Shown: positions 55,491-60,425, counted from the first letter of the stretch. The stretch is DNA of 64,000 nucleotides from Arenicellales bacterium (GCA_964291225.2 OZ219781.1:3250656-3314655); one strand, 5' to 3'. Made by a program: numbers and translations. The notes: generated by a model not told the origin, from the sequence alone.

Positions 55491-56370
55491 AGTTTGCTTT
55501 TTCCAATTATTCTTTACAAAATCACCAGAAATTTTACTTGCAATATAGTTTATTTTGTATTCTGCAGATATGGAAAATTATGATTTTCTATATTTATTGC
55601 GATCAATAGTTGCCGTAACAGTTAGTTTTTTTCATAACTTCAGACTTCCTGACTTGCCCATATATGACCATCAAAGCCACACTTGCCGCTGCCTGCCGGC
55701 GCTCTCATATTCTCTTTGATTTCGCATGCTTGCTGTCAAGAAATTGATCTGTTCGCACAACTGTCATTCGGTCTGCTGTATAAAACGGGTGGCATATTAT
55801 TTTCACATGAATCTCGCCAGCCCTAAGCCGAAATTCCGGTGAAGAAATGATATATGTACTCGTTATGACTGAAGTGCGATCAACAATCACAGAACACCTT
55901 GCGGTTGCCAGGCATTCCATCGGTCCCTTGAAAATACCCGCTGGCAGTGCGTCTTCACACTTTGCTGCAAGTATCACTCGGCCAAGATTGAGGAGCCGGA
56001 AGAGGAACGCCCAAGAACTGGCTCAGTATGCGTGATTATGAAACACGGGGACAAGCAAAGCCAAAGCAAGTGGCAAAAACATGAGACCTGTCGTTGCATG
56101 GATACAACCGAACTGGGCTGTGGCAAGCGTGCAGAACGAACATGCTCCTTATGAAAGAAGTATGTCAACTACAAGCTGCTCGCAGCGAGTGCCGTCAACA
56201 ACGCAAGATACTTTGCCACCAGCCAAAAACTGATTGAGCCAGACTTGCATCCAAGGCCTGACAAGTCTCAAACCCGAAACTGAATCTCATGGAGTTTGTG
56301 AAATCTGTACAGCCCCTGGATGCTTCCAGCCGTCAAGACATGAGTCGCCTGCCTTGCCACCATCTGAACT

Positions 56371-59300
56371 TCACCACCTCAGCGAGCCGCTCAGCCTGAT
56401 GCCATCGCCGCGGTCAGCGGCCGGCTTGTGCGTGTGCGTCAATTCCAGACTGAGGCCGCCGCGCCGGTATTCAAAACCGGTCTCATAGACCCGCGAACCC
56501 GACTCTGCCGGCAACAGCACCGACACCTTCGGTTTCATGTGACCCGCACCCATTGCCAGTCCATAACCAAACTCAAGCTGCGTGCCCACGCCGTCTGACT
56601 CTTCCCGCTCGGACACACTGTCGTCAATCGCTGACTCGGCCCAGGCTGACTGCAAGGCCTCAACCAACTCACCCTGTGTCGCCTTGATGCTCATGCTCGG
56701 CCCGAAGCCGTCAGCTCCTGACCTCAGCTCCACTCCCACATACACGCCATTCTCGCGATAGCGCTTGCTTGCACGCGACCTCAGCACACTGCCGCCCGCC
56801 TCCACTGACCAGCGGCCGTCCGCATCCGTGTAGCGCACACTGCCAGCCAACAACATGCTCAGTCCCGTCGAATAACTGTCATCATCGTAACGCACACCGG
56901 CCTCAACCTTCGGCAGCAACTGTCCGCCGTCTGACAAGGCCTGCAGGCGACTCCACTCCACCACCGCCTTGTATTGCCGCTGGTTGCTCTTCATCGGCGT
57001 CGCCGACAAGCCCTTGCTGGTCGTCCTTGACGCCGACACCTCGCCCTTGAAGGCCAAATCGAAATCCCAACTGACCCGGGTGCCCAGCAAAGCCGACAGC
57101 AACTCCATCCGACCCTTGCGATGCTCGGTTGAATCGGCAGCCAGTTGAAGCCGGCTGTCCGCCCGACCCGTGCCGTAGCCGAGTGTACCCCACAGTTCCA
57201 CCTCTTCGCTCGCCTGCCAGTGCACATACGGATGCACGCTGTTCATCATCACCTTCTCTTCCGACTTGGCACTGTCTCCGTCTTTGGTCGTGGTCACATT
57301 GCCCTTGCCGCGGGTTCGGAAATACGCCAGGCCGCCCATCCAGTCCGCCTGCGAAAACTCAAAGCCGATGCCGCCCACCGTCACGCTGCCGTCGATGGAA
57401 CGACCCGCACCGTTGCGCTTGAAACTTGTCTTGCCGCCCCTGCCCCACAGCGTCATGCCGCCTTCAACCGATGACTGACCCGTCGCTGACGACACGTTGA
57501 ACGAACTGTCTGACAGCAGGTCCAGCACACTGTCCACCCGCTGGCGCGTCAGTTCCACATCCCCGTCCAGCTGCAACGGCTTGTCTGTGTATGCGGGCGG
57601 CAACGGCACCGCTGACGAATGTGTCGGTCCGAACAGTACCTGCCGCCCGGCAATGAGCATGCTGTTCTGTCTCCCTGACACGGCGCCGCTGGTGCGGCTC
57701 ACGATGATGTCGTTGGCCACCCCGATCATGGACTGACCGAACTGAACATGCAACTCATGGATGCTGCCCTCATGCTCCTTGCGAAGCTCAACTGACAGCT
57801 TTTCGTCATCTGTCACCTTCACCGACACTGTACCGCCTGTTGTCACCAAACGGTAGCCGGTCACCGCATGGCTCACCTTGGCCGTGCCGTCAGCACTGTC
57901 ATCATCCTGCTCAGTGGTCACGGTCACCGTCTGCTCCGCATTCCAGTTGCCGGTCGTGAACGTCAGCGGGCCGGACACCGTCGCCACCGTCGCTGTGTCG
58001 CTGGTCGGCGTCACCGTCACACTGCCCGATGGCAACGTACCCAGTTTCACCGTGTAAGTCCCGGTGCCGCCTTCTTCCACCGTCAGCTCCGACGCACTGA
58101 GCACCACCCCCTCCGTGTCATTGTCTTGTATTGTCACCGTGGTCGTCGTATTGCCCAGTGCGAACGTGCCCGATGACAGCGCAATCGTCACCGTGAATGT
58201 CTCATCGTTCTCGTCCACAAAATCTTCCGTGATCGGTATCTCAATGTTTTTCGTGGTGTCGGTGGCACTGAAGGTCACTGACGACACCGCATCATTGTCA
58301 TAATCGCCGGCCGCTGGATTGTTCGCTCCGGTCGCCGTGCCATCGGTGTAAGTGACACTTAGCGTCACTATCTTTCCGGTTGGGTTTCCCACTGTGATTG
58401 GTATTGTGGCATCGCCAACGTCTTCAGACACCGTCAGAGTCACCGGCACCTTCAGCATCGGCATCGGCGTGGCCTTCACCTCATTCGACCAAACAGACTG
58501 CTCCTGGCCGCTATTGGGCATGGGGCGAGCCTCCATGCGGAACGCGTACTCCGTCCCGTTCGTCAGTCCCCACACCACACGCCGCACCGGATCCGATCCT
58601 GTTGGAAGTACGTTTCTGTTTTGTACCTTTGACTGGTCGGTCCAACTTTCTTTGCTTTCCTTGTATTGTAAAATCCAAAACGCAACTTCCGTCTTTGCTG
58701 GCCAACTCAAGACGACCTCCCTGTCACCCGCCACCGCGGTCACCACCGGCTTTTTGAGCCTGCCCGTCGGAGTCGCTTTTCGTACAGCCGATTGCTGTCC
58801 ATTGACAGCATTGTTCTTGGCGCGGATCCTGAATCTGTACTCAGCATCGTTGTCCAGACCGGTCACCGTATGGCTTGTCGTGGTGGCACTCGAGCTTGGG
58901 ATATCAGTCCAGTCTCCCCAATTGCCAGCCCCCTTGCTCTGTCTGTACTGCCAGCCGGTGATCGTGCCGGCCGGCTTCGTCCACGAAAGAACGACATGAC
59001 GGTTACCGCCTGTGGCGGTGACACCGGTCGGCGCAGCAGGGGATGCGTCATCGTTCACGATGGTGAAGGTGAGTCTGCCGGCAGTCCAACTAGCCGAAGC
59101 ACTTCCATTAGCTGAAGCATAGAGTTTGACGGTCTCGTTCGGTTCTTGCCGGGTATCGCCGAGGATGCGAACGGCCTTCGTGCCCTGGGTCTGACCTGTA
59201 GCGATGGAGATGGTGCTTCCGGCTGGCAAACACCAGTCAGTATCTGCCGGATTCAGCGGCGCAGTGCAGGGCTCACTCCCCTTGTTGGATCCCTTGGCCG

Positions 59301-59718: not shown

Positions 59719-60425
59719 GGGTAAATCTCATTACATAAGGTGAATCTTGCCCCGTATTGGCGACAATCGCTTCATATTGTTTATATAACCTGCAAGAGGC
59801 CTTCTTATTGCTCTCATTATACTCCATATCATGATGGACAATGCACTTCTTTCTCAGGACTTGCAATGAAATGGAAATGAATATGACTCCGCAAATGATC
59901 GGAACGCACACTGGTCGACAGTTTTCTTGATTGTCCGGACCCTCTCTTTCAATCGCACCTGACACACAAATAGTCGCACTGGGAGCGGCAGACAACCTGT
60001 CAAACCAATCTTGCCCTTGACCCACTCAGCTAGGGAATCATGTTCAGTTTTACATTGTACGGAGTCAGGGTATCTGAAGTTCCTAGTTTTATCCCACTTT
60101 ACTTTAAATCTGAATTCATTGGCAAATGTGACAGTTGAAATCGACGATAATATATAGATTGTGCCTGAGTATTTGTAAAATGCAACGATAAATGCATAAT
60201 CAGCCAGCTTGGATTGATGCACAATTTGAGGCAACTATAATGAATCTAATAGTTGGTAATATGAAGAAGCAGACATGAAAATCACACCCTATCTAGCAAG
60301 AATACAATTTTTGATGCCTATGCAGCTTGTTCCGACATTCCTACTTGCCTAGACGGCTGTGCTTTTGTGGCATGTAAGTCTTACGAATACCACACTCACT
60401 TAATTTTATATTTTGATTTTCCACC

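Follow-up and report, generated by a model that had tools for sequence, protein, structure and literature searches.

A GC-rich block in an Arenicellales chromosome reads as a candidate mobile cassette for a predicted phase-variable surface adhesin

A 64,000-nucleotide stretch of the genome of an Arenicellales bacterium (GCA_964291225.2 OZ219781.1:3250656-3314655; hereafter the window, with positions counted from its first letter) contains a sharply delimited GC-rich block that carries a single large surface protein gene. How did such a block come to lie in a chromosome of much lower GC content, and what does its gene do? The original prediction described a single-gene island, recently transferred from a high-GC donor by an unexplained mechanism. 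Our analysis points to another answer. The block is best explained, with a probability of roughly two in three, as one copy of a transposase-less cassette that has 19-nt imperfect inverted-repeat ends and the anatomy of a mobile insertion cassette, carrying a member of a resident adhesin family that would be switchable through a tract of 16 G residues (G16), and not as a one-off recent import.

Nine paralogs from the same genome were compared as proteins, and DNA was read for five homolog-bearing contigs, all from one metagenome assembly (ERZ24894574): L001 (a 3.33-Mb genome, with 63-65% identity to the window in PurA and DgcN), L002 (17 kb), L012 (304 kb), L013 (186 kb) and L014 (a 2.23-Mb genome). 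Alignment with the L012 copy delimits a unit made up of an inverted repeat, a 3' non-coding shoulder, the adhesin gene, a 5' non-coding shoulder and a second inverted repeat. Its parts, with GC at third codon positions abbreviated GC3, are as follows.

55636-60081, minus strand: whole repeated unit (cassette) of 4,446 bp, homologous by blastn to the L012 copy (9282-16002) at an unrelated locus
55636-55654, plus strand: terminal inverted repeat at the 3' end of the unit, AACTTCAGACTTCCTGACT, 0 mismatches to the motif
55655-56370, minus strand: 3' shoulder, conserved non-coding DNA, GC about 0.47-0.50, 81-90% identical to DNA downstream of the L012 and L013 copies
56371-59718, minus strand: adhesin coding sequence, an intact open reading frame (ORF) of 1115 aa for a predicted phase-variable autotransporter-type surface protein, GC 0.600, GC3 0.708
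59719-60062, minus strand: 5' shoulder, conserved non-coding DNA, presumed promoter and leader, 77-80% identical to DNA upstream of the L012 and L013 copies
60063-60081, minus strand: terminal inverted repeat at the 5' end of the unit, AACTTCAGATACCCTGACT, pairing with 55636-55654
L012 9282-9300, plus strand: counterpart of the window 5' end repeat, AATTTCAGACATCCTGACT, at the end of homology
L012 15984-16002, minus strand: counterpart of the window 3' end repeat, AAATCCAGAGTTTCTGACC, at the end of homology

The compositional contrast that drew attention to the locus is real. Measured in 300-nt windows, GC is 0.37-0.40 at 55400-55850, climbs to a plateau (0.54-0.64, about 56150 to about 59750) and is back down to 0.36-0.42 by 60050; the remaining window is even in composition (0.39-0.48 in 2-kb windows). 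The adhesin ORF has a GC content of 60.0%, about 16 points above the 43.9% of the window minus 55680-60020. The original prediction was right about the sharpness of the jump, about the borders (placed at 55680-60020, close to the unit found here), about the presence of one gene and about shoulders of intermediate GC (0.44-0.50) that hold no ORF with a family match. Its figures need adjustment: the ORF is 60.0% and not 63% GC, and the chromosomal background is 43.9% and not about 40%, since counts of 37-38% fit only the AT-rich intergenic flanks.

By codon position the adhesin ORF has GC1 0.571, GC2 0.522 and GC3 0.708. GC1 is unexceptional, and the excess sits at GC3, which is 0.33-0.48 in the 36 other window ORFs (all of at least 200 aa). 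The contrast is thus an effect of codon usage; amino-acid composition was rejected as its source, the signal being at GC3. Relative synonymous codon usage of the ORF correlates at -0.17 with that of pooled host genes, compared with at least 0.40 (median 0.67) for single host genes; it correlates at r = 0.93 with the L012 copy and at 0.71 with the background genes of L014, a 61%-GC genome. Two of the checks suggested with the original prediction, sliding-window GC and codon usage, reveal a plateau and a foreign-like usage of codons.

Is the block an insertion? It is flanked by DgcN (DUF1611) on one side and a class IV aminotransferase on the other, the same families that had been named earlier. 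Beyond DgcN lie an MR_MLE racemase and an amidase, and beyond the aminotransferase a D-Ala-D-Ala ligase (Ddl). The nearest DgcN homolog in the database, 73% identical, belongs to contigs (L009 and L010) with the gene order Ddl, aminotransferase IV / DgcN, MR_MLE racemase, amidase, 4HBT thioesterase, DDAH, and synteny with the window holds on both sides, out to DDAH and Ddl. The divergent aminotransferase and DgcN genes are 149 bp apart in these contigs versus 4,935 bp in the window. The block is therefore a genuine insertion into a conserved D-amino-acid gene neighbourhood, in agreement with the earlier claim, and the 149-bp gap represents an empty site in a related, though distant, genome. 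A more distant relative (L011, DgcN 65% identical) has another gene arrangement and is uninformative on this point. Native DNA remains on either side of the cassette.

55491-55635, no strand assigned: native intergenic DNA on the dgcN side, split by the insertion, GC 0.26 (L009 gap of 149 bp, GC 0.28)
60082-60425, no strand assigned: native intergenic DNA on the aminotransferase side, GC 0.36, with sigma-70-like matches toward the aminotransferase gene

Beyond matches of 13-21 nt, nothing in this native DNA is alignable with the 149-bp L009 gap.

The ends of the unit are better resolved. By blastn, the window and L012 are homologous between 60081 and 55686, and the alignment extends this to 55636; homology stops at the outer edge of the repeats. 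At its other location the unit begins 10 nt downstream of an isocitrate/isopropylmalate dehydrogenase-family (PF00180) gene, counted from its stop codon. The two window repeats are complementary at 16 of 19 positions, and the 19-nt motif AAYTYCAGANNYYCTGACY has only two close matches in the window (0 and 1 mismatch), with one more at 3 mismatches. A 16-nt core of the motif is matched exactly twice among the 13 loci examined, both times in L012, and matches with 3 mismatches lie in the right orientation downstream of the L013 and L001 genes. The original prediction had seen no convincing direct repeats and, at the borders, only a shared 7-nt word, cttgccc, that could be chance. That word is not the border signal: the unit ends in the 19-nt inverted repeats at 55636-55654 and 60063-60081, which it has in common with the L012 copy. 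Direct repeats across the block borders are at chance level. Three of the four unit ends in the window and L012 are preceded by TA, which is weak evidence.

Between these ends, the copies share the shoulders as well as the gene. Window positions 56097-58139 are 90% identical by blastn to the 3' gene parts of L012 and L013 and to about 275 nt past the stop codon; 55686-56107 is 81% identical to L012 further downstream, and 55915-56107 is 90% identical to L013. On the other side, the 5' coding leader of L012 and the DNA upstream of it match 59428-60081 at 77-80% identity, and the corresponding L013 match (76-78% identical) stops at 60000. The 274 nt that follow the stop codon (56097-56370) also fall inside a 91.5%-identical match to L002. 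We take the shoulders to be conserved non-coding DNA because the copies differ there by indels of 57-88 nt and no ORF has a family match. Promoter and terminator scans returned nothing convincing inside the cassette, the 5' shoulder yielding no convincing sigma-70 match.

Pfam, tRNA and Rfam scans of the window found no integrase, transposase or tRNA at the block, as had been reported before, and the tRNA and Rfam scans found no tRNA, tmRNA or Rfam RNA anywhere in the 64 kb. Inside the unit there is no transposase: the only long ORF is the adhesin gene, and the shoulder ORFs lack Pfam matches. An integrase island or prophage was rejected (no integrase, no tRNA, one gene only). Inverted-repeat ends without a transposase do offer a mechanism where none had been proposed. 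By analogy with mobile insertion cassettes, the unit would be mobilised in trans by an unseen transposase. We could not place the repeat in any known insertion sequence (IS) family and make no family claim for it. Two transposase genes are found near homologous copies: one of the IS110 family (L002:778-2031) lies 1.8 kb upstream of the L002 copy within a GC-rich stretch (0.51-0.63), and one of the IS1595 family (L012:19524-20213) lies 3.5 kb downstream of the L012 cassette.

What had been described as a single-gene island has company: the 3,425,439-bp contig holds at least 10 paralogs, this gene included. A protein search recovered P0003, P0005, P0007, P0008, P0011 and the more distant P0026, and a cluster look-up added P0122, P0123 and P0124. 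The last 60 residues of the paralogs are almost identical and end in LRW, or in NW or HW in the more distant members. Elsewhere in the assembly, the L001, L002, L012 and L013 copies each stand alone between housekeeping genes, with GC of 0.60-0.64 and GC3 of 0.70-0.78 in backgrounds of 0.43-0.49. All these copies are equally GC-rich; high GC is therefore a trait of the family, independent of locus and host. Scans for relatives further afield found little. Look-ups of exact protein matches to the window protein, the aminotransferase, P0003 and P0005 returned no record. A contig-collection scan of genomes gave only distant Calx-beta matches in an Azotimanducaceae metagenome-assembled genome (MAG) and a Latescibacterota MAG, and two metagenome-contig scans, one with a 26-nt sequence beside the repeat and one with the protein, gave no match.

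The window copy is a mosaic with respect to the others. It has its leader in common with L012 and L013 and its C-terminus in common with L002, L012 and L013 (92-98% identity among C-termini), and its passenger matches L002 (91.5% over 56097-58964), which itself has a poly-C leader. Homology with other copies breaks sharply at 58139, 58964 and 59428. The passengers of L012 (11840-13710) and L013 (12160-14340) contain 5-7 tandem units of about 312 nt, each encoding an immunoglobulin (Ig)-like segment of about 104 aa; the window passenger has a single such unit (57919-58139). Protein lengths of 1713, 1817, 1924 and 1925 aa among close relatives are about one unit apart, as are those of P0010, P0005, P0004 and P0122, and point to copy-number variation. 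Breakpoints and unit numbers together therefore make recombination among the paralogs evident.

The gene itself encodes a tract and a series of domains, listed here from the N-terminus.

59561-59576, minus strand: homopolymer, C16 on the plus strand and G16 in the mRNA, codons 48-53 (RGGGGG), upstream of the signal peptide
59446-59529, minus strand: signal peptide, aa 64-91, RRLRAGFAAALLLTFAVALVPQAAQA, recognised by inspection of the translation, with the same layout in paralogs
57811-59445, minus strand: passenger, aa 92-636, with Calx-beta-like, FN3, second FN3-like, Calx-beta and Ig-like domains in that order
58780-59034, minus strand: FN3 domain, aa 229-313 (Pfam fn3, 8.1e-13)
58117-58440, minus strand: Calx-beta domain, aa 427-534 (Pfam Calx-beta, 1e-9)
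56374-57810, minus strand: predicted C-terminal translocator, aa 637-1115, a long helix and an outer-membrane beta-barrel ending in ...SLRW (AlphaFold2 (AF2) model, Foldseek, homolog PF03797)

Apart from the G16 tract, no run of G or C in the 64 kb reaches 7 nt. Translated in silico, tracts of 13, 16 and 19 G give the full protein (1114-1116 aa), and tracts of 12, 14, 15, 17, 18 and 20 G lead to a stop at 56-67 aa, before the signal peptide. No ATG, GTG or TTG lies between the tract and the signal peptide. With G16, the window copy is in the ON frame. Both states occur among the copies: in homologous leaders that are about 90% identical, L013 has G12 in frame and L012 has G13 out of frame. The L012 gene call consequently begins downstream at MALSW (P0010) and leaves over a 59-aa upstream ORF, and P0005 and P0124, from the window's own genome, have N-terminal truncations of the same kind. 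A second subfamily (P0002, P0006, P0008, P0009, P0012, P0013 and P0123) carries poly-C at the equivalent place, read as PPP, PPPP or PPPPP; P0003 has no tract.

The frame dependence is a matter of computation, and by analogy with phase-variable genes the tract would act as an ON/OFF switch for the window gene. Slipped-strand gain or loss of one G at replication would shift the frame and bring a stop before the signal peptide (OFF), 13, 16 or 19 G being the ON lengths. This putative switch, functionally the most telling feature of the block, had been passed over in the original prediction.

A gene outside the family has a comparable arrangement. L013:4042-6780, on the minus strand, encodes a 912-aa protein with no BLASTP relation to the window protein, no Pfam match and the end ...VEF, and a 16-nt poly-G tract (GGGGG; 6657-6672) stands just before its signal peptide. 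Its GC of 0.55 and GC3 of 0.64 are moderately raised against about 0.46. Within this lineage, more than one family of outer-membrane proteins thus seems to rely on a homopolymer-in-leader switch.

What kind of protein would be switched? A 63-aa leader with the tract precedes a signal peptide that was identified by eye (basic n-region, RRLR; hydrophobic core; AQA). A search of Protein Data Bank (PDB) sequences with the whole protein returned FN3 domains only, and NCBIfam holds no meaningful family for it. The translocator-coding part is 90-95% identical among copies at the nucleotide level. BLASTP aligns the C-terminal region with PF03797 segments of the distant homologs P0120 (6e-8) and P0099 (8e-9). 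A PF03797 match at E ≤0.01 was present in 6 of 10 homolog C-termini aligned over the same region, and 4 of 10 sampled distant representatives passed the PF03797 cutoff. An exhaustive search with the last 400 aa recovered 3,662 representative clusters at E ≤1e-3 (1,636 at ≤1e-10 and 9 at ≤1e-30), and in almost every one of the 150 proteins listed the match fell at or near the C-terminus. The terminal aromatic residue of the C-terminal ...GSLRW, W, is present in all 18 family members inspected.

An AF2 model of this region (m27a1329a7040, window 56374-57813; pLDDT, the predicted local distance difference test score, 70.7, from a 20-sequence alignment) consists of a 40-residue helix followed by an all-beta barrel. 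Foldseek matched the model to outer-membrane barrels only, including the autotransporter beta-domains of BrkA and Hbp, at TM-scores (template-modelling scores normalised to target length) of 0.52-0.55; TonB-dependent receptors and LptD gave E-values as good as those of the autotransporter beta-domains. The ratio of nonsynonymous to synonymous divergence (dN/dS) against the other copies is 0.17-0.25 in the conserved 3' 1.77 kb, and the gene is therefore under purifying selection. We conclude that the protein would act in the manner of a type V autotransporter adhesin, although it may not belong to the classical family in the strict sense. The passenger is probably an adhesin, and we infer outer-membrane anchoring, surface display and adhesion.

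These elements can be joined in a single proposal. The cassette at 55636-60081 would have entered the short region of divergent promoters that separates dgcN from the class IV aminotransferase gene. Its product would be a type V protein anchored in the outer membrane: leader and signal peptide come first, then a Calx-beta/FN3/Ig-like passenger, and a helical linker leads to a divergent barrel. With at least 10 such genes that have near-identical C-termini and shuffled leaders and passengers, independent switching and recombination would generate a variable cell surface. The GC-richness of the family would be inherited from a high-GC lineage and would be slowly eroding. A further step is possible, though we lean against it: the cassettes may form a mobile "phasome", each delivering a complete switchable adhesin gene, equipped with promoter, homopolymer tract, signal peptide, exchangeable passenger and barrel, to new intergenic sites and perhaps moving between co-resident bacteria. 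Such movement would account for the high-GC signature kept in genomes of 43-49% GC. The translocator, with its approximately 18 predicted strands, might in addition represent a new, larger class of autotransporter barrel.

Several observations weigh against this proposal. On the side of the protein, the C-terminal approximately 480 aa of the window copy have no PF03797 or other Pfam match even at E ≤10, and a C-terminal profile search of PDB sequences found no match. DSSP assigns about 18 strands over about 360 residues of the model (moderate confidence), against the canonical 12; a classical autotransporter barrel has 12 strands in about 270 residues. As for the switch, the tract-length differences are differences between paralogs or strains in long-read assemblies, in which homopolymers can be miscalled. 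For the insertion, the closest organism with an "empty site" is only 73% identical in DgcN. Finally, with respect to mobility, the window pair is 1 of 26 inverted pairs of similar strength that a repeat finder detects in 5.1 kb, clear repeats are missing at the L013 and L002 copies, no target-site duplication flanks the window or L012 copy, and no transposase with matching ends was seen, the IS110 (L002) and IS1595 (L012) elements lacking the motif.

These last points speak for an alternative in which the family spread by ordinary duplication and homologous recombination and the 19-nt repeats are chance or regulatory sequences. We nevertheless regard this alternative as unlikely. The repeat pair counts, in spite of the 25 others in the region, because it coincides with the ends of homology at two unrelated loci, where homology stops within 1 nt of the outer repeat edge at both ends. 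Each copy is, moreover, a single gene set exactly between intact housekeeping genes, a pattern that homologous recombination would not yield.

The mobile-cassette reading leaves the source of the GC-richness to be explained, and here another alternative must be considered: that the family is native and old, with a high GC3 that is actively kept up and not foreign in origin, for instance through GC-biased gene conversion among frequently recombining paralogs or through selection that acts on codons or DNA structure. The mosaic modules with their three sharp breakpoints and the homogenised C-termini speak for it, and GC3 has been kept at 0.71-0.72 in two genomes with very different housekeeping genes. 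The direction of recent change speaks on the other side. Singleton changes polarised among the window, L002, L012 and L013 copies over the conserved 1.77 kb comprise, on terminal branches, 52 GC-to-AT versus 25 AT-to-GC changes overall and 33 versus 12 at third positions. This net GC loss is not an equilibrium and is about what unopposed host mutation bias would give, which favours foreign ancestry and slow amelioration over a biased-conversion equilibrium; the test is weak, as recent changes are AT-biased in most bacteria. Codon usage that correlates with a genuine high-GC genome also counts against maintenance, and we consider it improbable.

That high-GC genome, L014, comes from the same sample and has a background GC of 0.58-0.62. 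Within 25 kb it contains three FN3 autotransporter-like genes, two of them complete (GC 0.64-0.65) and the third running off the end of the locus, and C15/C16 tracts at 9894-9908, 17537-17552 and 24788-24802 (also 1599-1611) lie 90-310 nt upstream of the called starts. The same architecture thus occurs, in the same community, in a high-GC lineage whose base composition it fits. The L014 homologs are only 24-39% identical to the window protein, and their genome is therefore not a recent donor. As side observations, the FN3 genes of L014 are interleaved with AAA_16 ATPase genes and with repeated 366-aa genes of no known function, and their called starts may be wrong owing to the tracts.

This brings us back to the original prediction, a single gene transferred recently from a high-GC donor straight to this site by a mechanism not specified. 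Foreign codon usage that matches a genome of about 61% GC, the net third-position flux from GC to AT, the distant homologs of the same architecture in that genome and a relative with an empty site all fit such an event. Yet the same genome has at least nine paralogs, and the copies at other loci have diverged (synonymous divergence, dS, of 0.14-0.21 in the conserved part and 20-24% divergence in the 5' end). L001, whose housekeeping proteins are about 65% identical to those of the window genome, carries a homolog that is 72% identical and equally GC-rich, with about 65% identity over the C-terminal 400 aa. A homolog about as divergent as the housekeeping proteins, together with the dS values, means that the family is not a recent arrival. 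The proposed BLASTP search for a donor lineage turned up in-genome paralogs and low-GC contigs as the closest relatives, and no recent donor is in hand. What survives of the donor claim is the foreign-like codon usage and high-GC ancestry; a recent single transfer does not, and we consider it very unlikely. Most likely, a family of high-GC ancestry spread within the genome and has been slowly eroding, with no recent transfer of the window copy.

An assembly chimera, in which a high-GC metagenome fragment was misjoined into the contig, is very unlikely: the source is apparently a metagenome assembly that also holds the 61%-GC genome with related genes, but both flanks are syntenic with a single locus, intact in the relative, the defined ends of the insert are common to copies in other low-GC contigs, and the closest relatives (90-98% identical) lie in low-GC contexts and not in the high-GC genome.

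The surroundings of the cassette add some context. The conserved cluster (window 50459-55490 and 60426-62505, L009:4676-14929, the relative being about 70% identical) has the order DDAH-like, 4HBT thioesterase, amidase, MR_MLE racemase, DgcN / class IV aminotransferase, Ddl, and in L009 it continues after Ddl with a GMC oxidoreductase and a second amidase. The insertion divides a shared divergent promoter region, and the regulation of both operons could change as a result. L009 and L010 come from one sample and have identical DgcN, and L010 alone has a 252-aa gene without Pfam match between the thioesterase and DDAH (L010:6495-7253 versus L009:13959-13961), a second small, strain-level insertion in the neighbourhood. 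The other window genes are ordinary chromosomal ones, among them an AddAB-like helicase-nuclease, DegP, TrpE, HflK and peptide ABC transporters as well as PurA. No database protein is more than 68% identical to PurA, and named gammaproteobacteria such as Endozoicomonas, Ectothiorhodospira and Woeseiaceae reach 57-58%; the DgcN search gives the same picture. The host is a deep-branching, uncultured gammaproteobacterium.

Phase-variable surface proteins are textbook devices of human pathogens. The same switch logic seems to operate here in an uncultured bacterium of deep-branching ancestry, with at least 10 adhesin-like genes built from animal-type domains (FN3 and Calx-beta). A switchable gene within an inverted-repeat unit that lacks a transposase suggests a concrete, testable route by which such families could spread. 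With GC3 about 30 points above its genome, the family also offers a natural test of amelioration versus repeated community transfer versus GC-biased gene conversion. Two cautions for annotation follow: a compositional "island" can be a resident family and not a fresh import, and homopolymer miscalls make such genes seem truncated (P0005, P0010 and P0124).

How does this system compare with known ones? Eukaryote-like proteins with FN3 and Calx-beta (cadherin-like) domains are reportedly enriched in symbionts of sponges and other animals. The passenger has the same domain types, and one distant FN3 match is named after a sponge-associated taxon. The habitat of the present genome, in contrast, is not given by the data, and host association is a guess; only the domain types suggest a host-associated lifestyle.

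The vls genes of Borrelia and the PE_PGRS genes of mycobacteria are variable surface-protein families of deviant base composition. Like the family described here, they are paralogous surface families with GC well above that of the genome, conserved ends and variable middles. Unlike them, this family has no visible layout of silent cassettes and an expression site; each copy is complete and has its own switch.

MIC231 of Bacillus cereus is an example of a mobile insertion cassette (MIC). MICs consist of passenger genes between IS- or Tn-type inverted repeats, without a transposase, and Tn3-type MICs of Xanthomonas carry effector genes (PMC4337579). The unit in the window resembles them in its terminal inverted repeats, in the absence of a transposase, in a single cargo gene for host or surface interaction and in its occurrence at several unrelated loci. 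It differs in that no target-site duplication and no cognate autonomous element were seen here, the repeats are short (19 nt) and imperfect, and movement in trans is our proposal.

The closest functional parallel is with the meningococcal autotransporters NalP and MspA, which phase-vary through homopolymeric tracts in their coding sequences (PMC3723659). NalP and MspA/AusI of Neisseria meningitidis (type Va) have the succession of signal peptide, passenger and C-terminal barrel that is predicted here, and a G/C homopolymer in the 5' coding region switches their translation ON and OFF by frameshift, as the G16 tract would do. In the window protein, however, Calx-beta, FN3 and Ig-like domains make up the passenger instead of a protease or beta-helix. 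Its tract precedes the signal peptide, within a leader. The barrel domain spans about 360-380 aa, which is longer, and PF03797 does not detect it. At least 10 genes, with shuffled modules and a GC content that exceeds the genome's by 16 points, form the family to which the window gene belongs. Phase-variable autotransporters and mobile insertion cassettes are thus each components of a known kind, and what is new is their combination, the persistent GC excess and the divergent translocator.

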